Shown here: in pieces, positions 1 to 12,435 of the stretch
Position numbering within the stretch: the first letter of the stretch is position 1
Layout of the letters: every line of letters starts with the position of its first letter
Virus record (IMG/VR): IMGVR_UViG_3300030333_002778
Span: 25,461 to 89,460 of that record
Source of the DNA: a virus
DNA: 64,000 nucleotides
Direction: 5' to 3' (one strand)
Made by a program: the position numbers and the translations under genes
Notes under the pieces: generated by a model
Seen by the model: only the letters and a program-made list of their open reading frames with translations
Told to the model about the DNA's origin: nothing
Database searches by the model: none

Positions 1-1
1 A

Positions 2-292
2 GCAGAAGAATCTATGCAGTTGTTTCAAGAATATAAAGATTTAGTGAGGGAAAGATATGGTCCTTCAACTTACATGCTTAATCGTGACTTTGATCATAAG
101 TATGAAATTGATATATTTGAAGATGATGATGATCCATCTATAAAAACAGATGGTAAAGGTGGTGTACTTTATTATAAAACTAGAAAAGATATGTTTATGG
201 ATAATCCTTGTACAAAAGAAGAATGGGAAGAATATCATAAACATAAAGATTTTCATGATCAATATCAATTTATAATAAAGAACGATGATTGA
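2..292 (+). CDS. Hypothetical protein, probably 5'-truncated by the window edge
   Basis: ORF 14..292; the frame is open back to position 2 (AEES-MQLF); its end overlaps the next ATG. Confidence 0.6.
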   Translation, partial: AEESMQLFQEYKDLVRERYGPSTYMLNRDFDHKYEIDIFEDDDDPSIKTDGKGGVLYYKTRKDMFMDNPCTKEEWEEYHKHKDFHDQYQFIIKNDD

Positions 293-383
293 AATATTTA
301 TAATAAGCCTATTTGCAGGGATAGCGATAGGCTTATACATATCAAGTCAAATTAATCGTTGGATAGATAAAAATAGTAAATAA
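285..383 (+). CDS. Small single-TM peptide (MIEIFIISLFAGIAIGLYISSQINRWIDKNSK, 32 aa)
   Basis: Below the ORF-track cutoff; ATG overlaps the end of the upstream ORF; hydrophobic N-terminus; next ATG 2 nt after the stop. Confidence 0.6.
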   Translation: MIEIFIISLFAGIAIGLYISSQINRWIDKNSK

Positions 384-385
384 TT

Positions 386-475
386 ATGAAAAGAGATGAA
401 ATTCAAACAACAGCATTACTCATAGCAATAGTAATATTCTATGTATTAATGCTTTTAATAATGATAACACGATGA
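386..475 (+). CDS. Small single-TM peptide (MKRDEIQTTALLIAIVIFYVLMLLIMITR, 29 aa)
   Basis: ATGA overlap with the 472..657 ORF; hydrophobic stretch of about 19 aa. Confidence 0.6.
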   Translation: MKRDEIQTTALLIAIVIFYVLMLLIMITR

Positions 476-657
476 AAGAATCAGCATTTTATAATATAAA
501 TATGAAAGGTAAACGTGAACCTAATGAGTCTAGAGAAGACTATAAAGCACGTATGAGGGAGGTGAAAGAAAGAACAAAATTACATTTAAAAGGAAGAATA
601 ATATGGGACAGTAAAACTCTTGGTACATATATCAAGAAATTACATGGCCCATTATGA
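472..657 (+). CDS. Small basic hypothetical protein
   Basis: 61-aa ORF translationally coupled to the upstream peptide. Confidence 0.7.
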   Translation: MKESAFYNINMKGKREPNESREDYKARMREVKERTKLHLKGRIIWDSKTLGTYIKKLHGPL

Positions 658-661
658 TGTT

Positions 662-740
662 GTGGGATGGAGTATATCGTAAGAATACTTGAGGATTTTT
701 AGTTGATTGTAATTATTTTTTGTCCTTTCATGCATCCCAC
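662..740 (+). ncRNA. Candidate structured RNA, element 1 (~79 nt, three-way junction)
   Basis: GTGGGATG(662-669)/CATCCCAC(733-740) closing stem; inner AGTAT/ATACT and AGGAT/GTCCT hairpins. Confidence 0.5.
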
Positions 741-748
741 TTATTAAA

Positions 749-820
749 GGGGAATTTAGTATAGTGAGTGGCGCGTTGCTATACACATTTTTGCTGACAT
801 AATCTTGGATGGTTTCCCCA
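749..820 (+). ncRNA. Candidate structured RNA, element 2 (~72 nt)
   Basis: GGGGAA(749-754)/TTCCCC(814-819) closing stem; 9-bp GTATAGTGA/TTGCTATAC hairpin with two G-U pairs. Confidence 0.5.
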
Positions 821-828
821 GTATACAA

Positions 829-921
829 AGAGGAGTGCTCGATATAAGACGAGGTTATTCACGCATTCGTACATGTAGTTTTAAAAGTTCCATCTTAATT
901 CAAGCATGTGAGAGCTCCTCT
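829..921 (+). ncRNA. Candidate structured RNA, element 3 (~93 nt)
   Basis: AGAGGAGT(829-836)/GCTCCTCT(914-921) closing stem; inner CTCG/CGAG and ACATGT/GCATGT stems. Confidence 0.5.
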
Positions 922-926
922 GTGAT

Positions 927-1156
927 ATAAACAAAGAAAGACGGAAGACCGTTAGACTATTATTAATTATAATTGTAACAGGTTATAAACGTTAGTTTAA
1001 TAAAGAACGTCACTATGTAGAAAGAGGTTATCCATTTATCTTCGGATATTTCGATGAATGATCATTGTAATTGTGATCTGATAGATCTGTAGTTAATTCT
1101 ACGGGGAGAATCAGCATAGTTACCATAGACTGTCATGAAGTCTTTCACTTGTTTAT
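927..1156 (+). ncRNA. Candidate large multi-branched RNA, element 4 (~230 nt)
   Basis: ATAAACAA-A-GAAAGAC/GTCTTTC-AC-TTGTTTAT closing helix; six or more inner hairpins including TATC-TTCG-GATA. Confidence 0.6.
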
Positions 1157-1285
1157 GTATTAGCCAGTGATATGGATATAATAATAGATAAGCCGGCCAG
1201 CTTATCGCGGGAAAGTAATCCGTATTGGATGACTTAACACAATAGTGTTAAACCCATTATTATTGAAGTATCACTAGGCTGATAC
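1157..1285 (+). ncRNA. Candidate structured RNA, element 5 (~129 nt)
   Basis: GTATTAGCC-AGTGATA/TATCACT-A-GGCTGATAC 16-bp closing helix, then ATAATA/TATTAT, capped by three hairpins. Confidence 0.6.
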
Positions 1286-1407
1286 GCTTATAGCAAATAC
1301 TATTATCATTATGATAATGTATAAATATTTAGTTATGTCTATTCTCATTGAATACAATATACATATCTAATGTTACAAGAATGTTAAATTAAAATTAAAT
1401 AATTATT

Positions 1408-1647
1408 ATGTTTTGGAAAGATGCAGTAAATAATAAATATAAACATCTGATGAATTTAGTACCAGATGTTAGAAAGAAAGCTAAACTCCCTTATTCTGTC
1501 AATGTATTAGACGAGAAATTGGTAGAGTTAGAAAAAGAATACAACCGATTACAAGAACTAGACGCTAGTGACAAAGATATAACAGAAATAGAAAACCTTA
1601 TAACAGATTTAAAAAGTTCCATAACTATATTGATTATTGGAACATAA
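1408..1647 (+). CDS. Hypothetical coiled-coil protein
   Basis: 79-aa ORF with an A/T-rich translation start context. Confidence 0.7.
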   Translation: MFWKDAVNNKYKHLMNLVPDVRKKAKLPYSVNVLDEKLVELEKEYNRLQELDASDKDITEIENLITDLKSSITILIIGT

Positions 1648-1659
1648 TTATTATCTTTA
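1629..1659 (+). promoter_or_regulatory. Bacteroidota-like promoter variant (aTTG-N19-TATCTTTA)
   Basis: Near-match to the TTTG...TAnnTTTG consensus with correct spacing, 15 nt before an ATG. Confidence 0.45.
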
Positions 1660-1674
1660 TAAAAACGTTAATAT

Positions 1675-1755
1675 ATGTGGATATTAAAAGTATTAATTGC
1701 ACTAGGAATCTTATATAGTTTAGGATATTTATTCAACTCGTGGGAAGAACAATAA
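1675..1755 (+). CDS. Small single-TM peptide (MWILKVLIALGILYSLGYLFNSWEEQ, 26 aa)
   Basis: Follows the putative promoter; hydrophobic; next ATG 2 nt after its stop. Confidence 0.55.
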   Translation: MWILKVLIALGILYSLGYLFNSWEEQ

Positions 1756-1757
1756 AT

Positions 1758-1964
1758 ATGAGTTATATGAAATGGTTATCGACTCTTACCAAGGATGAGG
1801 TAGAGGAGATGAGAAATGAACTTCATAAAGCTGTAGCCAACAAACAAATCAAATTAAAATATAAGGATACAGAATATACTACTATGAAAATGAGTAGTAT
1901 AATAAACTATATGGATGATTTCTGGGAATTTAAAAATTGTGTAAAATTAGAAAAGGAGGATTAA
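1758..1964 (+). CDS. Hypothetical protein
   Basis: ORF 1740..1964; the in-frame ATG at 1758, just after the upstream peptide's stop, is the likelier start. Confidence 0.7.
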   Translation: MSYMKWLSTLTKDEVEEMRNELHKAVANKQIKLKYKDTEYTTMKMSSIINYMDDFWEFKNCVKLEKED

Positions 1965-1982
1965 TTTCCTCCTTTCTTGTTA
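1952..1982 (+). terminator. Intrinsic terminator-like hairpin upstream of polA
   Basis: AAAGGAGGA-TTAATT-TCCTCCTTT followed by T-rich CTTGTT. Confidence 0.6.
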
Positions 1983-2022
1983 ATAGCATGTATAAATATA
2001 TACAGAAGTAAAAATTTAAATT

Positions 2023-3894
2023 ATGAGTAAAATAGTATTAATTACAAATCAAAAACAAATAACGACTCCAAATTGTCCTTTTGAAATAGGAACAATGGAA
2101 GAGTGTGTAGATTATTTGAAAGGTCAACAATATATAGCTGTTGATACTGAAACTGAGGGTAAGGATTTCACCCGCAAAAAAATAGTAATGTTTCAAATAG
2201 GAACAAAAGAAATTCAATATGTTATAGATACTAGATATATATCTATAGAACCACTAAGAGATATACTTGAAGATACAGAATATCATGTAAAAATATTTCA
2301 TAATATTAAGTTTGATTATAAGTTTATTAAATCAAATTATAATATTGAAGTAGAGAATATTTATGATACTATGTTAGCTGAAGGTGTATTACATTGTGGT
2401 AAAGATAAGCACGGATACAGCCTTAACCGCCTAACACAGAGGTATTTAGGGGTGACGCTTGACAAAGAAGTTCGTAACAAATTTATAGGATTAGATGGTA
2501 AACCATTTACTGCTGAACAAATTTGTTATGGAGCTAAAGATGTACAATATTTGATTGAAATTATGGAGACTCAATTAGATCAGATATTTAAACTAGAATT
2601 ACATTATGTATTAATACTAGAAAATAAAGCAGCTTTAGCTTTTGCAGACATAGAATATAATGGTCTATGTTTTGATCAAGACTCTTGGCTTAAGAATGCT
2701 CAGGTAAATGAAACTGAAGTTACTTTACTCGAACAAGAATTGGATCAATGTATTGTTGATAATAATCTAGATGATTTTATTTCTAATCATGTTCAGCTTG
2801 ATTTCTTTACACCTGTTGAAGATCTTCGTAAAGTCAATGTTAAGTGGTCATCTCCTATGCAAGTTAAGAATGTAATGGAAAGACATTTAGATACATCACT
2901 TGAAAAAGTTAATGCATTTGAATTATCTAAATATAAAGATAGACCATTTGTAGGTAAATATCTTAAATATAAAGAAAAACAAAAGATATTAAGTACTTAT
3001 GGTAAATCTTTTCTTAAATATGTGATGAAAGATGGTAAAGTCAGAACAAGCTTTTGGCAAATATTAAATACTGGGCGTGTGTCTAGTGGATCTAAAGAGG
3101 ATCGTAAGCCTAATATGCAGAACATTCCAGCGAGGAATCAGTTTAGGAATTGCTTTCATGCAAGAGATGGACACAGTATTGTATCTGTTGATTACAGTGG
3201 GCAGGAGTTAGCTATTATTGCTTACGGTTCTCAAGATCCTGTTTGGATTAAATGTAGAAAGAATAATGAAGATCTCCATTCAGTATGTGCTGAATTAGTA
3301 TTTGGTGATAAATGGCATACAGGTGATAAAAAGAAATTAAGAAACATGATTAAGACTATTAATTTCGGATTAGCTTATGGTATGAGTAAGTTTAAATTAT
3401 CTGATACATTAAATATTGATGTAGATGAAGCTGATGAACTTATAAAGAAATACTTTAGCGCATTTCCTAATATAAAAGCATTTTTAAATAAACTTGGATG
3501 GTATGGTGTTATGAATGGTCATATTAAAACTTTTAAACCTTTTAGAAGAATTAGATGGTTTGAAAATTGGTATGCAGGTATACATAATTCATATAAAGAT
3601 TTCAAGATTAAAGGAGCGATTGAGCGTGCATCTAAAAATACTCCTATTCAAGGTACAGGAGCGGATATGATTAAACAATCTATGATTCTCATAAGAGAAG
3701 AGATTAAGAAAAATAATTATCCTTGTTACATGGTAACACAAGTACATGATGAAATAGGTGTAGAAGTTAAAGATGATTTCGCTGAAGAATGGGCTCATAT
3801 ACAATGTGAGTTAATGAAGAAAGCTGGTAAAATGATTGTTGATGGATTTGAAATGTCAGTTGATTATACAATAACTAAAAAATGGAGTAAATAA
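2023..3894 (+). CDS. polA: DNA polymerase family A with N-terminal 3'-5' exonuclease
   Basis: Exo motifs AVDTETEG, HNIKFD, YGAKD; motif A VDYSGQEL, motif B RNMIKTINFGLAYG, motif C QVHDEI; TGRVSS..PNMQNIP. Confidence 0.97.
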   Translation: MSKIVLITNQKQITTPNCPFEIGTMEECVDYLKGQQYIAVDTETEGKDFTRKKIVMFQIGTKEIQYVIDTRYISIEPLRDILEDTEYHVKIFHNIKFDYKFIKSNYNIEVENIYDTMLAEGVLHCGKDKHGYSLNRLTQRYLGVTLDKEVRNKFIGLDGKPFTAEQICYGAKDVQYLIEIMETQLDQIFKLELHYVLILENKAALAFADIEYNGLCFDQDSWLKNAQVNETEVTLLEQELDQCIVDNNLDDFISNHVQLDFFTPVEDLRKVNVKWSSPMQVKNVMERHLDTSLEKVNAFELSKYKDRPFVGKYLKYKEKQKILSTYGKSFLKYVMKDGKVRTSFWQILNTGRVSSGSKEDRKPNMQNIPARNQFRNCFHARDGHSIVSVDYSGQELAIIAYGSQDPVWIKCRKNNEDLHSVCAELVFGDKWHTGDKKKLRNMIKTINFGLAYGMSKFKLSDTLNIDVDEADELIKKYFSAFPNIKAFLNKLGWYGVMNGHIKTFKPFRRIRWFENWYAGIHNSYKDFKIKGAIERASKNTPIQGTGADMIKQSMILIREEIKKNNYPCYMVTQVHDEIGVEVKDDFAEEWAHIQCELMKKAGKMIVDGFEMSVDYTITKKWSK

Positions 3895-5090
3895 TGAATA
3901 TATCTAAAATAAAAGATAAAATTCAAAGAAAAGGTCTAAATAAATGGTTTAGTAAGCCGTGGTATGGGAGGGGTACTCTACAATATGCTACCGGTTCAGG
4001 TAAGACACGTTGTGGTGTTCTGGCCGCGGCTTATTTAGCCAAAATAACTAATATGGATGCTAGGATATTAATATTAACTCCTACTGAAACTATTAGAGAT
4101 AGATCATGGAAAGATGAATTTTATAAATGGAACGAAGGTGATGTATATGAACAATGTGTTAAATGTGTTTGTATACAAACCGCATATAAATGGATAGGTC
4201 ACAGTTTTGATCTAGTAATTGCAGATGAAATACATAATTATGTATCTCCTGAATATTTTAATTTCTTTGCTAATAACAAATTTGTTAGGATATTAGGATT
4301 ATCTGCATATATAGATCCAATTAAATTGAGATTATTAAATAGTATAGCACCTGTAGTAGAATCTATTTCTACATTAAAAGCACAGGATCTTGGATTGATT
4401 AGTCCATTCAAGATATATAATGTCCCGGTTAGATTGACCACAGATGAACAAATAGAATATGATAAAGCAGATAAATCATTTAATGGTTTATTTTCCTTTT
4501 TTAACAAAGATCTTAAAACTATGTTTGCTTGTATGAATACAAATGTATATAGTAATTTTCTTGCTAAAAAAGGCATGGTTCTTGACGCTTCTGTGGCAAG
4601 CTATCCGTTTATGTGTAATGCAGCAATGGCTAAGAGAAAGAATATAATATATAATTCTAAATCTAAAATCAAAGCTGTTAAAAAACTATCAAATATTTTT
4701 TCTGAGAAGAAGGCTATTATATTTTCTCAGACTATTGAATTTGCTGACAAAGTCACAGATGAATTAGATAATTGTGTAAGTTTTCATAGTAAAATTCCTA
4801 AAAAGAAAAGAAATGAAAACTTGAATTTGTTAAAGAGCGGGAACTCAATAACACGAATATCTACTGCTAAGGCTTTGAACGAAGGTATGAATGTACCTGA
4901 TATTTCTATGGCAATTATTGCTAGTGGAACAAGCAAGACTAAAGATATGATTCAGCGTATTGGTAGAGCAGTACGTTGGGAAGCTAATAAAGAAGCTTCA
5001 ATCTTTCGTCTCTACATTCAAGACAGTCAAGAGGAGAAATGGGTTAGCGCTTCTCAGGAAAAATATGAAGTTGAACAATTAAAATTATAA
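3894..5090 (+). CDS. Superfamily 2 (DExH) helicase
   Basis: ATGSGKT, DEIH, GLSA, EGMNVP, QRIGRAVR; TAATG overlap with polA. Confidence 0.93.
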   Translation: MNISKIKDKIQRKGLNKWFSKPWYGRGTLQYATGSGKTRCGVLAAAYLAKITNMDARILILTPTETIRDRSWKDEFYKWNEGDVYEQCVKCVCIQTAYKWIGHSFDLVIADEIHNYVSPEYFNFFANNKFVRILGLSAYIDPIKLRLLNSIAPVVESISTLKAQDLGLISPFKIYNVPVRLTTDEQIEYDKADKSFNGLFSFFNKDLKTMFACMNTNVYSNFLAKKGMVLDASVASYPFMCNAAMAKRKNIIYNSKSKIKAVKKLSNIFSEKKAIIFSQTIEFADKVTDELDNCVSFHSKIPKKKRNENLNLLKSGNSITRISTAKALNEGMNVPDISMAIIASGTSKTKDMIQRIGRAVRWEANKEASIFRLYIQDSQEEKWVSASQEKYEVEQLKL

Positions 5091-5091
5091 T

Positions 5092-5529
5092 ATGAAAACA
5101 ATTCTTGAAGCAAAAGATCATCTGCGCAAGAATTATAAGTCTGGTACTGGTTGTCCCGTTTGCGGACAACTAGTCAAGGCCTATAAGCGTAAGTTAAATT
5201 CAAATATGTGTAAAGCATTAGCAATTATATATAATAGAACTTCTGATGGATCTACTATACATGTACAAAATACTTTTTCTGATTTAGGATTAAGAGCAAC
5301 TGCTATGGATTATACTCATCTAGAGAAATGGGGATTTATAGAAACAGGAGATGTACATGGTCACTGGAAAATAACTAAAAAAGGTAAAGATTTTCTGGCT
5401 AATCAATCTGTAGCTTCTGCATACTGTTTAGTATATGCAGGTAAGGTATATGAATGGTCTAGTGAAATGATTACCATTGAAGAAGCTTTAACAAAACGAT
5501 TTAAATTAACAGATGTAATGCAATTATGA
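5092..5529 (+). CDS. Hypothetical protein with a CxxC knuckle and a probable winged-helix domain
   Basis: CPVCGQ followed by LEKWGFIE...WKITKKG, a wHTH-like pattern. Confidence 0.6.
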   Translation: MKTILEAKDHLRKNYKSGTGCPVCGQLVKAYKRKLNSNMCKALAIIYNRTSDGSTIHVQNTFSDLGLRATAMDYTHLEKWGFIETGDVHGHWKITKKGKDFLANQSVASAYCLVYAGKVYEWSSEMITIEEALTKRFKLTDVMQL

Positions 5530-5693
5530 AACACGATGAAACACGAAATGGAATACCTTGGGATGCGATAGATGATTACTATCAAACTCTCGAAAAAAAG
5601 ATTATTACAGTGACGTATGTCATTGGTAATCAGACAATTACAAGTCATAAAAAAGTAAAAAAATTCGATAAAAAACTTGTCGAAAAACTATAG
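5526..5693 (+). CDS. Small hypothetical protein (55 aa, MKHDETRNGIPWDAIDDYY...)
   Basis: Below the track cutoff; ATGA overlap with the upstream gene; fills the gap. Confidence 0.55.
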   Translation: MKHDETRNGIPWDAIDDYYQTLEKKIITVTYVIGNQTITSHKKVKKFDKKLVEKL

Positions 5694-5707
5694 TTTTATT
5701 ATATTTA
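5676..5707 (+). promoter_or_regulatory. Bacteroidota-like promoter variant (cTTG-N20-TATATTTA)
   Basis: Near-consensus motif 25 nt before the start of the helicase/primase gene cluster. Confidence 0.45.
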
Positions 5708-5732
5708 CAAACTTAAAATTTCCTATAATTAT

Positions 5733-6317
5733 ATGAATATAGAAATCAATGTTTTTGGTTTAATAAATAATAAATTAACAGCATCACAGTATGTTATGTT
5801 AAATTTATTATTTGAAAATAAGAAGGAGTTATTTGTAAATTATGTTAATCTATATGGATTTGCAAAAAGAGAACTACAAGGACTGGTGGATCAGGGTTAT
5901 ATATTAACTTGTGATCCACAACAGCCCTTAACTTGTATAACTATTGCAAGAGATAAAGTCAGAAAATTATTAGGAATAGAAGAATCTTATTTCACAGAAT
6001 TATTTGAAAAATATCCTATAAAAGTATACAATGGTAGAACAGTGCGAGTATTAAGACCTACAACGCTTTCTTCAAAGGGAGCACAAAATTGTAAAGCTAA
6101 ATATGATCGTGTTGTAAAGGGTAATTTGCAAAAACATAAATTCATTATGGATTGTTTAAATAAAGAAATAGAAACCAGAACAAGAGGTGGAAATTTACAA
6201 TATATGCATGCATTAGAAACTTATTTAAACAAAAATGCTTGGGATGCTTATGAGTCCCTATTAGATAGTAATAATAACGTATCTTCAGATACAAAATATG
6301 GTGAAGGATTAATATGA
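5733..6317 (+). CDS. Putative replication initiator or helicase-loader-like protein
   Basis: HTH-like N-terminus; FTELFEKYP...LETYLN..AW C-terminal pattern; coupled to the DnaB-like gene. Confidence 0.5.
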   Translation: MNIEINVFGLINNKLTASQYVMLNLLFENKKELFVNYVNLYGFAKRELQGLVDQGYILTCDPQQPLTCITIARDKVRKLLGIEESYFTELFEKYPIKVYNGRTVRVLRPTTLSSKGAQNCKAKYDRVVKGNLQKHKFIMDCLNKEIETRTRGGNLQYMHALETYLNKNAWDAYESLLDSNNNVSSDTKYGEGLI

Positions 6318-7306
6318 CAAAAATAAATAAACCTAGATTACAATATACAAGTATAAAGAAAGCAACATTTGATGCTACTCAGTATATTGAAAAGAGAAGA
6401 AAAGGATTAATTAAATCCTTAAGAACTCCATGGTCTAAATATAACCATGTGAGTATGGACGGAATAGAGTGGAACACTATACATACTATAGCGGGTATGT
6501 CTGGTAGTGGTAAAACTGCTATTATAAATCAGTTAGAAACAGAATTATTTAGATTAAATACAGATGAAAAATTTGCTGTATTATCATTTAATTTTGAAAT
6601 GCTAGCACGTCAACTAATAAGCAGAAAGTTTTCTAATGCTTTAAATACAACAACTAGAAAACTACATAGTGGTATAGAAGGATATTCTTTATCTGATGCT
6701 GCTTATTATAAAGTTCTTTCTACAGGAAAGGAATTATCTCAATTACCTATATGGTATGTAGAAATGCCTGGAAATGTAGAGTTAATTAAAAATACAATAG
6801 AACATTTTGTTACATCCGCAGAAAATAAAGATCGTGGTGTAGTAGTTATGTTAGATCATACAATTCTTGTAAGAGGTAAAGCCGGAGAATTAGAACGACT
6901 AATATTAGTTGAACTGATGGTTATGGCAAACTCTCTTAAAAAGAAATATAAGATTGCATTTGTATTTTTATCTCAGCTGAATAGAGAAATAGAACAAGCT
7001 GATCGAGTTGTAGAACCATCACAGCAATTTCCTAAAAAGAAAGATTTATTTGGTGGTGATTCAGTATATATGTTCTCTGATTTAGTAATGGTTTCAATGA
7101 ATCCTGAGCAATTAGGATTAGAAACTTATGGACCAAAGAGTTGGCCAACTAAAGATGCATTATTTTGGCATTTTCTAAAAGTAAGAGAGGGTAAACCTTG
7201 TATTGCTAAAATGAAAAACGAATTAATGTATAATAGAGTGGTTGATTATACGGTAGAAAATGTATATGAATTAAATACTAATAAAGATGACAAAAATATG
7301 GGATGA
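6314..7306 (+). CDS. dnaB: DnaB-like (SF4) replicative helicase, mainly the ATPase domain
   Basis: AGMSGSGKT, FNFEM, LDH, LSQLNRE, KVREG. Confidence 0.9.
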   Translation: MTKINKPRLQYTSIKKATFDATQYIEKRRKGLIKSLRTPWSKYNHVSMDGIEWNTIHTIAGMSGSGKTAIINQLETELFRLNTDEKFAVLSFNFEMLARQLISRKFSNALNTTTRKLHSGIEGYSLSDAAYYKVLSTGKELSQLPIWYVEMPGNVELIKNTIEHFVTSAENKDRGVVVMLDHTILVRGKAGELERLILVELMVMANSLKKKYKIAFVFLSQLNREIEQADRVVEPSQQFPKKKDLFGGDSVYMFSDLVMVSMNPEQLGLETYGPKSWPTKDALFWHFLKVREGKPCIAKMKNELMYNRVVDYTVENVYELNTNKDDKNMG

Positions 7307-7658
7307 TAGTAATTTTATATCAACTGGTAATGACTATGATATAGATTATAGCAACTCAGAAGATTATGAGAGTTGTGTAAAAGAACTAGAAGCATTAGCA
7401 AGAAATATAGAGGAAGCAAAACGACCTGGATATACTCAAGCTAATGGAGACGTATTGGCTAATTTCAAGAAAGCGGCAGAATTAGCTGGGACAACACCTA
7501 TGCAAGCATGGGGTGTATATTTTTATAAACATGTAGCTGCAATTTTATCTCATGCTAAAGATCCTAATATTCCTCAAGCGGAAGATTTGGATGGTAGATT
7601 TGCAGATGCGATGAATTATCTTAAATTGGGTTTTTACCTATTAAAACAGAAAAAGTAA
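7287..7658 (+). CDS. All-alpha DUF1599/nucleotide-modification-associated-like protein
   Basis: K..GY...DVLANF...KH....GRFADAMNY pattern. Confidence 0.55.
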   Translation: MTKIWDDSNFISTGNDYDIDYSNSEDYESCVKELEALARNIEEAKRPGYTQANGDVLANFKKAAELAGTTPMQAWGVYFYKHVAAILSHAKDPNIPQAEDLDGRFADAMNYLKLGFYLLKQKK

Positions 7659-7659
7659 T

Positions 7660-8331
7660 ATGGCGAATTTAGTTATTATATGTGGAAAGTCAGGATCCGG
7701 CAAGTCCACCTCTGGAAGAAATTTGGATCCTAAAACTACTTTTTGGGTAAATAGTGATCAAAAAGCATTACCATTTAAAGGATGGAAAAAGAATTATTCT
7801 AAAGAAAATAAGAATTATTCTAAAGTATCTTCTTTAGTGGAAACATGTAATATTTTGAAAGCTATACCTGAACGTGCTCCTCACATTAAAACTGTTATTG
7901 TTGATACAATTAATCGTATGATGACAGATAAAGTAATGGGAGAAAGACATGTTAAAGGATTTGAAAAGTGGACTCAATTATCTGGTGGTATATATGATAT
8001 ATTTACTATAATAAATCAAATATTACCTGATGATATTGATGTATTTGTATTAGCGCATTCTGAGGAAGGATACAATGATATGGGTGCTCAATATAAGAAA
8101 GTAATGACAGCTGGAAAACAACTTGATCGCATTGTTTTAGAGTCTATGTCAAGCGTTGTTTTATTTACTGAAGTTAAAGCCGATGGTAAAGGAAAGAACG
8201 AGTATATGTTTCAAACACAAACTGATGGTGTTTCAACTGCGAAATCACCTGAAGGAATGTTTGAAGAATATTTAATTCCTAATGATTTATTAGAAATTAA
8301 AAAAGCGATGAATAAATATTATAATGAATAA
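7660..8331 (+). CDS. AAA-family ATPase (Sak4/AAA_24-like)
   Basis: GKSGSGKS, VIVDT, LAH, TAKSPEGMF...IPND. Confidence 0.88.
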   Translation: MANLVIICGKSGSGKSTSGRNLDPKTTFWVNSDQKALPFKGWKKNYSKENKNYSKVSSLVETCNILKAIPERAPHIKTVIVDTINRMMTDKVMGERHVKGFEKWTQLSGGIYDIFTIINQILPDDIDVFVLAHSEEGYNDMGAQYKKVMTAGKQLDRIVLESMSSVVLFTEVKADGKGKNEYMFQTQTDGVSTAKSPEGMFEEYLIPNDLLEIKKAMNKYYNE

Positions 8332-8353
8332 TTAATCGATTAAAATTAAATTT

Positions 8354-8911
8354 ATGTATCAAATTAATCAGACTGTAAAGTCAGAGGGATCGTCTACCTC
8401 AGTATTCCCGTTAGGTATAACGGAAAATGCAGAAATGACGAATGTTAGTGTTGACACTGCTAGTAATGGTAATGCATTTCTTAAGTTTGAATTTACTTCA
8501 AATGAAGGATCTAAGCTAAATCATTTCGAGTGGCCAATAGACACACAAAATGAAGGTTGGGAAAAGAAATTACAATCTCAAATGAAGAGAGTAAAACATA
8601 TCCTAACTAAATTTATGGAAGAAGATAAAATAATTATTAATGCAGATTCTTTTGAAGGATTTGCTAAAGGTGTAATCACTTTACTTGGTAATACTTATGT
8701 AGGTAAGAAATTAAGAGTAAAAACTGTTTATAGCTACAATAATTATGTATCTATTCCTAAATATGTTCCTTTCGTTGAAACTATGGATATTAATCCAACT
8801 AAGTTAAATATAACAAGTTTTGATAAAATGGAAAAAGATGAAGCTGATAACCCAGCTACATTAAGTTCAACAAGTACAGAAACTAAATCAGATGGTGATT
8901 TACCATTCTAA
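8354..8911 (+). CDS. ssb: Single-stranded DNA-binding protein
   Basis: OB-like beta pattern, acidic C-terminal DGDLPF tail, position between the ATPase and the primase. Confidence 0.75.
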   Translation: MYQINQTVKSEGSSTSVFPLGITENAEMTNVSVDTASNGNAFLKFEFTSNEGSKLNHFEWPIDTQNEGWEKKLQSQMKRVKHILTKFMEEDKIIINADSFEGFAKGVITLLGNTYVGKKLRVKTVYSYNNYVSIPKYVPFVETMDINPTKLNITSFDKMEKDEADNPATLSSTSTETKSDGDLPF

Positions 8912-8947
8912 ATAAAATTTAGTTTCTTTGCGTTAATAAAATATATA

Positions 8948-9982
8948 ATGTATAAAATAAATATTTCGTTAACCAAAGAAGCTGTACTTAATAAAATAAG
9001 TTCGTACCAAATTTTTAGTTATTATTTGGGCCGTGATTTTAAATCCGGCATAGTATTGAGTAGTCCCTTTAGACAAGATGATAAACCAAGTTTTTCTTTG
9101 TTTACCGATCGTAAAGGGACTATTCGGTATAAAGATTTTGGTACTGGTGAATCGGGTGATTGTTTTAATTTTATTCAGAAGAAATTCGGAATAGGTTTTT
9201 ACGATTGCCTTATTCGCATTAATAACGACTTTAAATTGGACTTAATGTACAGTGGAATTGGCAGAACAACTGTTCCTTATGACGGTTTCAAGACTGCAAT
9301 CAAAGAACTAAATTTTAATCCTAAAAAATCTATAAATGTTAAAGTACAACCTTATACTTTTATAGATGAACATTACTGGAATCAATATGGTATTGACAAG
9401 AATTTACTTAAAGTATATAATGTATTTTCTTGTAAATGTGTTTTCATTGGAGATAAAACTGTAGCTACTTATGTAAATAATAATCCTATTTACGGCTATT
9501 TGTTTTATAAAGATGAAGAATACACATGGAAAATCTATCGTCCTTTATCTATTAACGGATACAAATGGATGAGCAATACCAATAGAACTGTATTTCAAGG
9601 ATGGGATCAATTACCTAGAAAAGGTGATTTTATTATTATTACTAAAGCATTGAAAGATGTTATGGTATTAAGAACATTAGGATTCATAAGTGTTGCATTG
9701 CAAAATGAAATCGCAGGTATAAAGGATACTGTTGCTCATGAATTATATGAGAGATTTAATGATGTATATATATTAAATGATTTTGATTATACTGGCGTAA
9801 GAGGCGCTAATAAACTAAAAAAGAAATATGGTTTCAAACCTATATTTCTTCAATGTTTTAAAACAAGATCAAATGGATTTAAAGATATATCTGATTTCAG
9901 AAAATCTCATTCATATGAAGAAAGTAAAAGTTTAATAAAAAAATTAATAGATAAATGGAAATACGAAGAGAACAACCCGTAG
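8948..9982 (+). CDS. dnaG: DnaG-like primase, crAss type
   Basis: SPFRQDDKPSF...YKDFGTGESGD, WKIYRP, TKALKDV, NDFDYTG, KDISD. Confidence 0.9.
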   Translation: MYKINISLTKEAVLNKISSYQIFSYYLGRDFKSGIVLSSPFRQDDKPSFSLFTDRKGTIRYKDFGTGESGDCFNFIQKKFGIGFYDCLIRINNDFKLDLMYSGIGRTTVPYDGFKTAIKELNFNPKKSINVKVQPYTFIDEHYWNQYGIDKNLLKVYNVFSCKCVFIGDKTVATYVNNNPIYGYLFYKDEEYTWKIYRPLSINGYKWMSNTNRTVFQGWDQLPRKGDFIIITKALKDVMVLRTLGFISVALQNEIAGIKDTVAHELYERFNDVYILNDFDYTGVRGANKLKKKYGFKPIFLQCFKTRSNGFKDISDFRKSHSYEESKSLIKKLIDKWKYEENNP

Positions 9983-12435
9983 AAGAATTTATTGGAAAAG
10001 CTAAATCTAATAAATTCAAGATTGGTGATGATTCTGTAGGAATAATCATCGACTCTTTAATTAATTTATATTCTGATCCTATTGGTTCTATTGTAAGAGA
10101 GGTAACATCTAATTGTTATGATGCTCATAGAGAAAAACGTCTTAAAAGAAAAGGAGTAATTCCTATGACTTCTGAAGACAAACTTCAATATTGGCATAAA
10201 GAAGATAAAAACCCTCAAATAGAATTTCAAGATGAGAATATATTATTAGGTATTGGTAATGCAATGATATTTAGAGATTTTGGCGTTGGATTAAGTCAAT
10301 ATAGAGTAGAAACTATCTATACTATGTTTGGTAATTCAACTAAAAGAGATAACAATCTACAAATTGGTGGATTTGGAATTGGTGCTAAATCTCCATTTGC
10401 ATATACTGATACTTTTTATATTATAGCAAATCATAATGGTATAAAATATTCATATATGTTATACAAAGGTAACGATGCATTTCATATGGATATGATAAAG
10501 AAAGTACCAACATCAGATTTAAATTCAACTGAAGTTATTATACCTATAAAAGAACATTCAGATCTCAGAACATTTAGAAAATCTATAGAACAACAACTAT
10601 TATATTTTGAAAATATTAGATATATAAATGTCGAAGAAGGTTTAGGAGCTAATATTAAATCTATAGCGTGTGATTATGAAGATGAAGATTTAGCTATTTC
10701 TTTAGATTTAAAATCTGCAAGTATAGATCAAGAACTTCATTGTATGGTAGGTAGAGTCAGATATCCTTTAGATTTTAATTCTTTAGATAATATTTGGAAA
10801 GATAATTATAATAATAAAGAAAAAGATATTCCTGCTGCAATTAAATTTGATATTGGTGAAATTGATTTGGTCCCTTCAAGGGAAAATATTCGATATACTG
10901 ATAGAACTAAAGAAGCTATTAAAGCTAAGATTGAATCTGTTAGAAAAAGTTGTATATATGATTGTAATAGAGAATTAAATAATGCTACTGATTTTATACA
11001 CTGGTTAGAAATGTCTACTTCTATTCTTAAAAGGGATACTTGGCGAAGAACTTATGATAGTGTTTTTGAAATAAGAGCTTCTTTAGCAGGATTGAAGAAA
11101 GACGATATTAAATTAAATTTAGTAGGTGAACTAAGTGTCAATCCTTTATTAGATAAATCTGAAACTAAAATGTTTTCCGGCTTTACTTGTTATACTATTT
11201 CAAAAGAACCTAGTAAAAATCATGTAGGTGGTTATAGATTACTTAAAAAAGTATCAGTTTTAAAAGATTTCTTAAATTATCCGGTTTATTATCAAGAACA
11301 AAATTATGAACCTGATGAAGAAGGGAATGTTAAGACAAAAACTTTTAGAAAAGCTAAAGATATGGCTATTTTAAATTATGTTTTAGAATCTAATAAAAAC
11401 TCTTTTATTCAATTAAGAAAGAATAGAATAGATGATAAAGTTATTGAATCTGAAAAAGAAATTGATCTTTGGAATAATAAACAAGAAGCCAGGGAACCAG
11501 AAGTAATTAAATCTGATTTTGAAATTATGTCTAAACTTATAGATGGGTGTAAACATAGATTTAGAATGTATGATGATTTTAAACAAGAAGTATCAGATGA
11601 TTTAGTTGGTGAATATGAATCCGATCAAGCAAGAAGAAAAAGATTGGGTAAAATATTTGGTAGAAAACTTTATTTAGGTCGTAATATGGACGAAGCTAAA
11701 TTTGGTAATATAGAAACTGAAGTTACTGATCTAGGAGCTTATAAGGATAAAGGTGGTATTGTAATATATGGTTTTTCAAAAGACAATGAGTTATTAAAAC
11801 AGATAGGAGGTATTTGTAGACAAAATGGAATGAATGAACATGCTCCTGAGTATGCTAATACTAACTTTAACTGGGCTCCAGCGGAAGAAAATAGGCAAAG
11901 TTATAGAGATTTTCATGAAGGAGTTGTTATTTTAAAAGTAGCAGCTAATCTTAAAGATCAATTAGCCGAATTTATAAATGTTAATGACTTGTTTAAAATG
12001 AAACACGATATAATAAAAAAATGGTATACTTCTCATCTTATTATGGAAGATACCGAAAAGATTAATTTCTTTCAATTCTTTAGAACTTTAAATGAAGATT
12101 TGTTTTATAAATGGCGTAAACTTCACAGACTCCATGATAAAAACTATCGTAGATTTAGATATCTAAATGAATATCAGTCTGATGAATTACTTGATTTATG
12201 TAAATCAAATAATTTACAAGATGATAAAGCTTTAGAAACTCTAAAAGAATTAAAACAATATGCCGAAGGTTTAGATTTACTTAAATATATAGATATAATA
12301 CAACCTACTCAAGAAGAAACGAGAATAGAAAATAAACAATTATTTCTTGAGTTACGTAAGTATCTTAAATTTAAGAATAAAGCTACTTTAAAGTATAAAA
12401 AAATTAGAAAAAATAATAAAAAATTAGTAAATTAG
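9955..12435 (+). CDS. rIIA: rIIA-like protein (GHKL/HATPase N-terminus)
   Basis: LYSDPIGSIVREVTSNCYDAH, RDFGVGLS, STKR...GGFGIGAKSPFAY, PSRENIRY. Confidence 0.9.
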   Translation: MEIRREQPVEEFIGKAKSNKFKIGDDSVGIIIDSLINLYSDPIGSIVREVTSNCYDAHREKRLKRKGVIPMTSEDKLQYWHKEDKNPQIEFQDENILLGIGNAMIFRDFGVGLSQYRVETIYTMFGNSTKRDNNLQIGGFGIGAKSPFAYTDTFYIIANHNGIKYSYMLYKGNDAFHMDMIKKVPTSDLNSTEVIIPIKEHSDLRTFRKSIEQQLLYFENIRYINVEEGLGANIKSIACDYEDEDLAISLDLKSASIDQELHCMVGRVRYPLDFNSLDNIWKDNYNNKEKDIPAAIKFDIGEIDLVPSRENIRYTDRTKEAIKAKIESVRKSCIYDCNRELNNATDFIHWLEMSTSILKRDTWRRTYDSVFEIRASLAGLKKDDIKLNLVGELSVNPLLDKSETKMFSGFTCYTISKEPSKNHVGGYRLLKKVSVLKDFLNYPVYYQEQNYEPDEEGNVKTKTFRKAKDMAILNYVLESNKNSFIQLRKNRIDDKVIESEKEIDLWNNKQEAREPEVIKSDFEIMSKLIDGCKHRFRMYDDFKQEVSDDLVGEYESDQARRKRLGKIFGRKLYLGRNMDEAKFGNIETEVTDLGAYKDKGGIVIYGFSKDNELLKQIGGICRQNGMNEHAPEYANTNFNWAPAEENRQSYRDFHEGVVILKVAANLKDQLAEFINVNDLFKMKHDIIKKWYTSHLIMEDTEKINFFQFFRTLNEDLFYKWRKLHRLHDKNYRRFRYLNEYQSDELLDLCKSNNLQDDKALETLKELKQYAEGLDLLKYIDIIQPTQEETRIENKQLFLELRKYLKFKNKATLKYKKIRKNNKKLVN

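Follow-up and report, generated by a model that had tools for sequence, protein, structure and literature searches.

Few viruses of the Bacteroidota, whether in the gut or in the sea, are as abundant as the crAss-like phages. The present analysis asks what is specified by an ORF-free gap located among the early genes of one such phage, represented by an IMG/VR virus record of 89,460 bp which is rated complete, and of which a 64,000-nt stretch (bases 25461 to 89460; here referred to as the window) was analyzed. The genome has a G+C content of ~30% and, as in crAss-like phages, harbors giant ORFs (5153 and 4147 aa); its PolA shares only ~31% identity with the PolA of named crAss-like phages. Genes are oriented leftward up to ~22.3 kb and rightward from ~22.7 kb of the genome, and three ORF-free gaps of 486, 735, and 750 nt occur within the initial 4.5 kb of the rightward block. 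The third gap (window positions 657 to 1408) is located between a 61-aa ORF and a 79-aa ORF, both of which are complete and possess intact homologs in relatives, and its G+C content (0.31 to 0.41) is above that of its surroundings. PolA and further replication functions (SNF2- and DnaB-type helicases, a DnaG-type primase, and a PD-(D/E)XK nuclease) are encoded 0.9 kb downstream. A preliminary description had proposed that window positions 927 to 1156, within this gap, specify a 230-nt multi-branched RNA, possibly catalytic or conformationally switching, raising the question of whether such an RNA is real, how far it extends, and what function it might serve.

Homologs of the domain at 927 to 1156

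Homologs of this domain, here designated U4, were identified in about 20 distinct marine crAss-like phage contigs, which fall into two clades and whose PolA is 64 to 79% identical to that of the window. Retrieval based on PolA yielded 25 related viral loci, and in the five closest of these (77 to 79% PolA identity) the homologous gap is present. The close clade comprises 11 distinct copies of the domain with 53 to 93% identity, among which the window copy is the shortest (230 nt) and the most divergent (53 to 63%); U4 of the close-clade relatives measures ~300 nt and is followed by a second domain, U5, of 130 to 140 nt.

A covariance model (R1) built from the P3 subdomain of U4 detected weak matches in seven more distant relatives (64 to 66% PolA identity), all of which are on the + strand and in the syntenic ORF-free gap. 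With a second model of this subdomain, R2, in which four of these relatives were included, six further members on which the model had not been trained were recovered with E values of 1e-4 to 1e-7, and nothing convincing was detected elsewhere; the distant clade comprises about nine sequences in total. The window itself scores 60.5 to 63.6 bits against R1 and R2, both of which include its own copy (E about 1e-12 to 1e-13). The homolog-based model advocated in the preliminary description was thereby realized for the P3 domain, and the structure proved to be conserved in relatives.

When viral and metagenome contigs were scanned for DNA motifs, L028, L058, L083, L084, L085, and L088 were obtained in addition, together with duplicates, L028 being the sole new true member obtained from exact-motif scans of viral contigs. 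Other motif-scan candidates (L027, L034 to L056, L095, L098, and L099) produced no nhmmer or R2 score, save for L040 and L048, each of which matched R2 at an E value of 0.18; L040 reads as coding sequence and was set aside as a chance match. Pattern scans of IMG/VR returned no additional true member, and a blastn comparison of the gap with 50,697 GenBank phage records gave no match. A core-pattern scan of 185,579 prokaryote species genomes (one genome each) produced three matches, two of which reached only 13.5 to 14.6 bits with R2 and the third of which gave no score, and no cellular or prophage copy was found among these species. Within the collections covered here, this group of marine phages is the only one in which the family occurs.

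Secondary structure of U4

All members share an architecture composed of a closing helix, P1, of 14 to 16 bp, an internal loop, a helix P2, and a three-way junction of P2, P3, and P4. In the window, where all elements are on the + strand, P1 is formed by positions 927 to 942 and 1140 to 1156, with 935 and 1147 to 1148 unpaired, and corresponds to the 15-bp closing helix described previously, which is supported by covariation. It encloses a purine-rich internal loop (943 to 946 opposite 1135 to 1139; UGUU/UGAU in most relatives) and the covarying P2 (947 to 949 with 1132 to 1134). P3 (950 to 953 with 1006 to 1009) follows P2 directly and opens the P3 domain (950 to 1009), on which models R1 and R2 are based. 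This domain harbors a conserved 4x3 internal loop in which AGNC faces AAG, the latter inside the motif UGUAAAG, followed by a short inner helix (958 to 962 with 999 to 1002) and by hairpin P3a (967 to 973 with 982 to 988), whose loop is conserved per clade, being UUAAAUC-like in the close clade and AGGAAC in the distant clade. According to the alignments, the J3/4 linker (1010 to 1012), UCA, is near-invariant, and the J4/2 linker (1129 to 1131), ACU, follows P4 in nearly all members. Between these linkers is the P4 domain (1013 to 1128), the interior of which varies in length between relatives; it is closed by P4 (1013 to 1017 with 1124 to 1128; three of five pairs changed on both sides) and contains a hairpin tip within the length-variable region (1037 to 1048) as well as P6 (1078 to 1082 with 1110 to 1114; two of six pairs changed on both sides) and its tip (1086 to 1092 with 1099 to 1105).

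Several of the hairpins read initially from the single sequence recur in this consensus with the backing of covariation, namely, TTATAATT/GGTTATAA (P3a), the TATC-TTCG-GATA tip, CTGAT/ATCAG (P6), and TCTGTAG/CTACGGG (the P6 tip), the last of which is variable in size among relatives. Others had to be abandoned: the ACGG-AAGA-CCGT hairpin (942 to 953) occurs in no relative and clashes with the covarying P2 and P3, while P3 also takes the place of the local ACGTT/AACGT hairpin throughout the family. For the subdomain that had been drawn as closed by ACTATGT/GCATAGT, the partner of the 5′ stem strand CTATG (1013 to 1017) across the family is CATAG at 1124 to 1128 rather than GCATAGT at 1114 to 1120, the latter pairing being peculiar to the window.

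Evidence for selection on the fold

The suspicion that U4 is nonfunctional, representing either spacer DNA that folds by chance or an overlooked gene for a small protein, draws on its folding energy, which only moderately beats that of shuffled sequences on the + strand (z -2.9; 1 of 200 shuffles as good), and on the observation that the minus strand folds as well (z -2.3). Values of -4.0 were obtained for the whole ORF-free gap (650 to 1410) and of -4.7 and -3.5 for copies in relatives; by themselves, such z-scores are modest, being suggestive rather than decisive, and the real support is provided by covariation. In the close clade, 97.6% of the cells of the full fold are paired and 21 of 47 pairs are changed on both sides, an outcome reached by none of 500 shuffles and far above the slid controls, which produced at most six such pairs. 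RNAalifold, applied to the 11 close-clade copies, returned a multi-branched fold in which 19 of 41 pairs exhibit compensatory change. For the P3 domain, assessed with 21 distinct sequences of both clades, 94.5% of cells are paired and 16 of 18 pairs are changed on both sides, with none of 500 shuffles reaching these values and no more than eight such pairs in the slid controls; these statistics are favored by the fact that this alignment was fitted to the model.

Direct reading of the sequences is in agreement, as each subclade forms P1, P2, and P4 from sequences unrelated to those of the others and P3 likewise differs. Within P1, the close clade shows two-sided changes at 6 of 14 pairs, and the distant clade contains entirely different yet complementary sequences. 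P2 covaries as GAGC:GCUC or GAAC:GUUC in 11 of 11 close-clade sequences, occurs also as GAC:GUC across the subclades, and is represented in the distant clade by AGAG:CUCU, UGU:GCA, or GGAG:CUCC, while P3 takes the forms CGUG:CACG, CGUU:AACG, CCAG:CUGG, and CCUG:CAGG. In a near-identical environmental variant of the window copy, both partners of two pairs are substituted in a compensatory manner, 937A>G with 1145T>C in P1 and 947G>T with 1134C>A in P2, and three single changes preserve pairing (973T>C, U:G to C:G; 1103G>A, U:G to U:A; and 1064A>G, A:U to G:U).

The covariation of the full fold and of the P3 domain already contradicts the nonfunctional reading, as do the ability of a structure-based model to find homologs in distant relatives and the absence of a conserved ORF from U4, whose indels in the close-clade alignment are not multiples of three; we regard this reading as barely credible. 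Moreover, G:U pairs outnumber A:C mismatches about 5:1 (20:4 and 30:6), from which it follows that the selected fold is that of the + strand RNA, whose orientation matches that of the flanking genes. We conclude with high confidence that positions 927 to 1156 represent a genuine, evolutionarily conserved structured RNA. The proposal of a large structured noncoding RNA is, therefore, borne out by conservation and compensatory changes across about 20 phage lineages, and the 230-nt multi-branched element has the sequence that was described and a fold which relatives maintain.

U5 and the extent of the conserved unit

While U4 is a real domain, its 230 nt do not constitute the whole RNA, as had been assumed, because a second conserved domain, U5 (1157 to 1285, + strand), directly follows it in every member, separated from it by a linker of 0 nt or by a conserved AAUCU. 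U5 is a rod with a closing helix of ~16 bp that contains one bulge and covaries (GUAUUAGCC/GGCUGAUAC, GUAUCAACC/GGUUGAUAC, and GUAUGAGUCAGUAAU/AUUACUAGACUUAUAC), and its length is 129 nt in the window and 70 to 142 nt in relatives. Given this constant order and the covarying closing helix, U4 and U5 form one conserved unit, of which U4 is the 5′ part, spanning 927 to 1285 (about 360 nt) in the window and about 250 to 460 nt in relatives. The window copy displays every hallmark of this family, i.e., P1, P2, the junction with its UCA and ACU linkers, P3 with AGNC/AAG and UGUAAAG, and the U5 rod.

The interior of U5 is shorter in the distant clade. In the close clade, it includes an invariant 19-nt stretch that forms the hairpin GATAAGC-CGGCCA-GCTTATC, and a palindrome, GCCGGC, spans the boundary between the stem and the loop.

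Relationship to catalogued RNA families

The RNA belongs to no catalogued family. Searches of the whole window with the 4227 models of Rfam 15 at gathering thresholds produced zero matches, searches of positions 500 to 1600 with permissive filters returned only chance-level matches (E values of 1 to 8), and U4 of relatives L002 and L003 likewise matched no Rfam model. U4 contains no T-arm, and ARAGORN found no tmRNA or tRNA-like gene in the window. Resemblances noted by eye to the 11-nt tetraloop receptor, the kink-turn, the SRP Alu motif UGUAAU, the 23S GTPase-centre RNA, and 5S rRNA were dropped in view of the lack of any model match.

The catalytic activity considered possible in the preliminary description would be that of a new self-cleaving or self-processing ribozyme which releases the units of the array. 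The size and complexity of the RNA are within the ribozyme range, its junction nucleotides are strongly conserved, and its units abut exactly, which would require precise cutting. Such trimming is, however, explicable by cellular RNases, and no Rfam 15 ribozyme or intron model matches, even at E values up to 10, including those for hammerhead, twister, pistol, hatchet, HDV-like, hairpin, and VS ribozymes and for group I and group II introns. The junction linkers of 0, 3, and 3 nt (none, UCA, and ACU) are unlike those of the hammerhead or any other known catalytic core, and the intact ORFs on either side leave no flanking exons. A ribozyme of this kind is accordingly judged to be very improbable.

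Conformational switching had been suggested on the basis of a competing 3′ hairpin, and it is true that in the window AGACU (1127 to 1131) can pair with AGUCU (1139 to 1143) in place of P1 and P2, as might be expected of a riboswitch-like element that controls the downstream gene. This alternative hairpin, however, was seen in none of the relatives, and the covarying P2 strand is located within its loop, such that the switching idea loses its basis. In addition, no Rfam riboswitch model matches, even at E values up to 10, U5 and a further stretch of about 120 nt separate U4 from the next gene, a terminator is lacking downstream, and the two clades do not share the same downstream gene; a riboswitch is for these reasons regarded as extremely doubtful.

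The RNA island and its counterparts in phage phi14:2

The gap containing U4 and U5 accommodates three upstream stem-closed units on the + strand, U1 (662 to 740), U2 (749 to 819), and U3 (829 to 921), whose presence differs between relatives, indicating gain and loss. Alignment shows U1 to be common to all close relatives, whereas U3 is common only to the window and L003, and U2 is replaced by other units in relatives. The order of genes is similarly fluid: two small genes which precede the RNA island in the window (285 to 383 and 472 to 657) have homologs that, in close relatives, follow both the island and the gene for a 79- to 82-aa protein (compare L005, 3678 to 4203), so that the RNA and the 79-aa gene relocate as one block relative to these two genes. 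Based on the variable upstream units and the relocated block, the island behaves as a cluster of separate stable-RNA genes of which U4-U5 is the constant core. Neither an intrinsic terminator nor a convincing promoter was seen inside the island.

The 79-aa protein (1408 to 1647, + strand) carries a C-terminal IIIGT motif and belongs to no Pfam family; its homologs measure 82 aa in both clades, end in IIIGTI or IIIIGI, and share 23 to 32% identity between clades. It was considered, and rejected, as a strict partner of the RNA: its gene adjoins the RNA in the close clade but is one gene away in part of the distant clade, and it is absent from the group of L011, L021, L012, and L024, meaning that its link to the RNA is not strict. 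No RNA-binding or RNA-processing domain was detected by Pfam analysis of the neighboring genes.

Long early noncoding RNAs from intergenic regions have been reported for the marine crAss-like Cellulophaga phage phi14:2, in which the regions between g004 and g005 and between g005 and g006 are transcribed rightward, exceed most genes in abundance, are already abundant when first sampled, and remain late in infection while early mRNAs decay (Drobysheva et al., bioRxiv 10.1101/2020.03.07.982082). The likeness to the present locus consists of ORF-free regions of ~0.7 kb among the first rightward genes, on the early-gene strand, of a marine crAss-like phage of Bacteroidota, the window gap at 657 to 1408 being within the rightward block which starts at about 22.7 kb of the 89.5-kb genome. 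Homology is, in contrast, not apparent: nhmmer, blastn, and R2 find nothing in positions 1 to 12000 of phi14:2, no relationship between the flanking proteins was detected, phi14:2 relies on PolB in place of PolA, and its regions as wholes fold no better than shuffled sequences (z -0.3 and -1.2). The RNA described here is part of an already reported, unexplained early noncoding RNA phenomenon of crAss-like phages, without being homologous to the RNAs of phi14:2.

A further difference is that one of the phi14:2 early regions holds a tmRNA-like gene, while the window has none. This gene, in the g005-g006 intergenic region (L094, NC_021806, 4031 to 4502, + strand), is called by ARAGORN as a tmRNA with the tag GSSVQKLAMVA* and scores 46.0 bits (cutoff, 47; E value, 1.4e-16) with the Rfam tmRNA model; the RefSeq record annotates no RNA gene there. 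Within the family itself, a separate tRNA-shaped unit of 77 nt is present in the island upstream of U4 in L002 (2359 to 2435, + strand), L004, and L088, but not in the window. Its match to the Rfam tmRNA model is limited to the two ends of that model (42.3 bits; cutoff, 47; E value, 3.5e-15); it is not called by ARAGORN and exhibits an acceptor stem with G3:U70, a canonical T-arm, and about 25 nt in place of the mRNA-like body. This unit would be a mini-tmRNA in a phage, consisting of a tRNA-like domain only.

Expression and proposed function

In one marine metatranscriptome sample, the sole contigs matching window positions 300 to 2000 fall inside the RNA island, which is a weak hint of expression, as contigs of this type give no level, ends, or strand and RNA-library contigs can derive from DNA. 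One contig of 172 nt covers positions 768 to 933 at 100% identity, and another, derived from a relative, extends across the junction of U4 and U5; positions 300 to 767 and 1269 to 2000 were left uncovered by runs X19 and X20, an absence which is uninformative.

The position of the RNA on the sense strand of the early region, coupled with the near absence of spacer to the adjacent ORFs in some relatives, argues for co-transcription with later trimming. In L013, for instance, only about 8 nt separate the domain from the stop codon upstream of it, and about 30 nt lie between the end of U5 and the next start codon. Conservation, moreover, is concentrated in the unpaired nucleotides of the junction, internal loop, and hairpin loops, while the helices covary freely, a pattern which is the usual signature of a binding surface. 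The gene downstream of the RNA differs between clades, which argues against a gene-specific leader; a stable RNA gene is also favored by the gain and loss of the upstream units and by the tmRNA-like neighbors in the islands of relatives and in one of the phi14:2 regions.

We tentatively propose, as a reading to which somewhat less than an even chance is assigned, that U4-U5 is a stable, processed, trans-acting early RNA which binds a phage or host protein. The RNA would be co-transcribed with the small early genes, and trimming at its stem-closed ends would release a stable molecule that acts in trans, displaying its invariant unpaired nucleotides for a protein to bind. Such a molecule would resemble the abundant and long-lived early noncoding RNAs of phi14:2. 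The partner could be a phage protein, for which the RNA would serve as a scaffold, or a host factor, for which it would serve as a decoy during takeover.

The tight spacing in L013 fits equally well with a cis-acting intercistronic element of a polycistronic early mRNA, which could provide an RNase III or RNase E processing site and an exonuclease barrier or could tune translation of the flanking small genes. The lack of an intrinsic terminator or convincing promoter in the island is compatible with such an element, as is the abutment of the long closing helices of U4 and U5 across a linker of 0 to 5 nt. A stability or processing hairpin, however, would have no need of 180 to 320 nt with a conserved three-way junction, invariant linkers, and conserved loops; the clades differ in the genes that flank the RNA, and these have been rearranged around it; and the analogous RNAs of phi14:2 outlast the early mRNAs. 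We consider a cis-acting role to be unlikely, albeit not negligible.

Comparison with other phage RNAs

Several known phage RNAs invite comparison with the processed, trans-acting RNA favored here. The species 1 and species 2 RNAs of T4 are stem-closed, stable RNAs other than tRNAs which are encoded beside tRNA-type genes, in phage tRNA clusters, and cut from a polycistronic precursor. The present RNA resembles them in being stem-closed and, for the island of some relatives, in its proximity to tRNA-type genes, its processing being proposed; the T4 RNAs, by contrast, are smaller (about 120 to 140 nt), belong to another phage group, and have no sequence relation to it. GOLLD and ROOL RNAs are similarly long and intricately folded, and often occur in phages or prophages near tRNA-type genes, but neither the window nor its relatives match the Rfam model of either, and the present RNA is smaller and consists of two separately closed domains. 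The pRNA of phi29, which forms part of a protein machine, shares with it the features of a phage-encoded early RNA with a three-way junction and paired 5′ and 3′ ends. It differs in that the present RNA has no Rfam match, originates from another phage lineage, and displays no link to packaging genes; conserved complementary loop pairs for ring formation were not seen.

A bolder interpretation is that U4-U5 represents a new functional class with an activity of its own, be it a novel ribozyme or an RNA that would take over the host by assembling with other copies of itself or with the machinery of translation or RNA decay, within a wider, unrecognized repertoire of early-expressed crAss-like “stable RNA islands” which also hold tmRNA- and tRNA-like genes. 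We view such a class as distinctly unlikely. The occurrence of orphan folded RNAs and tmRNA-like units in one island hints at a stable-RNA tool kit for host takeover.

Long noncoding RNAs figure among the very first transcripts of crAss-like phages, and the present finding adds a well-defined family, about 20 members strong, whose secondary structure is supported by covariation, together with a short list of invariant unpaired nucleotides, which may be mutated or used as bait. An unexplained intergenic transcript is in this way converted into an RNA open to probing, pull-down, and structure solution.

Sequences surrounding the RNA island

The region between U5 and the next gene (1286 to 1407) is very A+T-rich (GC 16 to 17%), contains an inverted repeat around 1300 to 1325, and is nearly invariant between the window and close relatives, even though U4 is 53 to 63% and the next protein ~50% identical in the same comparison. 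It may serve as a promoter or leader, or as a signal for replication or packaging.

The same A+T-rich stretch, together with the location of the RNA about 0.9 kb upstream of the PolA, helicase, and primase genes, might be taken to indicate that U4-U5 is a replication element, i.e., a structured primer, an R-loop-forming transcript, or an origin region. An origin had also been sought through GC skew and was rejected, as the skew tracks the direction of transcription and does not point to an origin at this site. Phages of the distant clade have a ribonucleotide reductase gene and several small genes between the RNA and PolA, and the preference for G:U pairs reflects selection on RNA folding rather than on DNA. 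A role in replication is, as a result, considered highly improbable.

The ribonucleotide reductase-like genes of the distant relatives (L007 to L025) are ORFs of 617 to 619 aa just upstream of PolA (L011, 3682 to 5541) resembling the class II, B12-dependent enzyme, and are absent from the window and its close relatives.

Two short repeated sequences were observed in the early region. The first, AATGTTAAATTAAAA, occurs three times, at window positions 1380 to 1394 and at 3378 to 3392 and 3519 to 3533 of L093 (genome positions 25177 and 25318), each copy being located ~25 nt ahead of the start codon of a small early gene, and is a candidate promoter or translation-initiation element; a similar sequence, AAATGTTTAATTAAAA, follows U5 in the distant clade. 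The second, TTTTATGACCTAnnACCnTTAC, is present upstream of the window in three co-oriented copies (L093, 918 to 939, 1410 to 1431, and 1822 to 1843; genome positions 22717, 23209, and 23621) at the head of the rightward block, each preceded by a T-rich run, and these copies are candidate early promoters. Finally, the two ends of the genome (1 to 120 and 89341 to 89460) share a stretch of ~75 nt (about 77 bases with two mismatches), which is either a terminal direct repeat or an overlap resulting from circular assembly.
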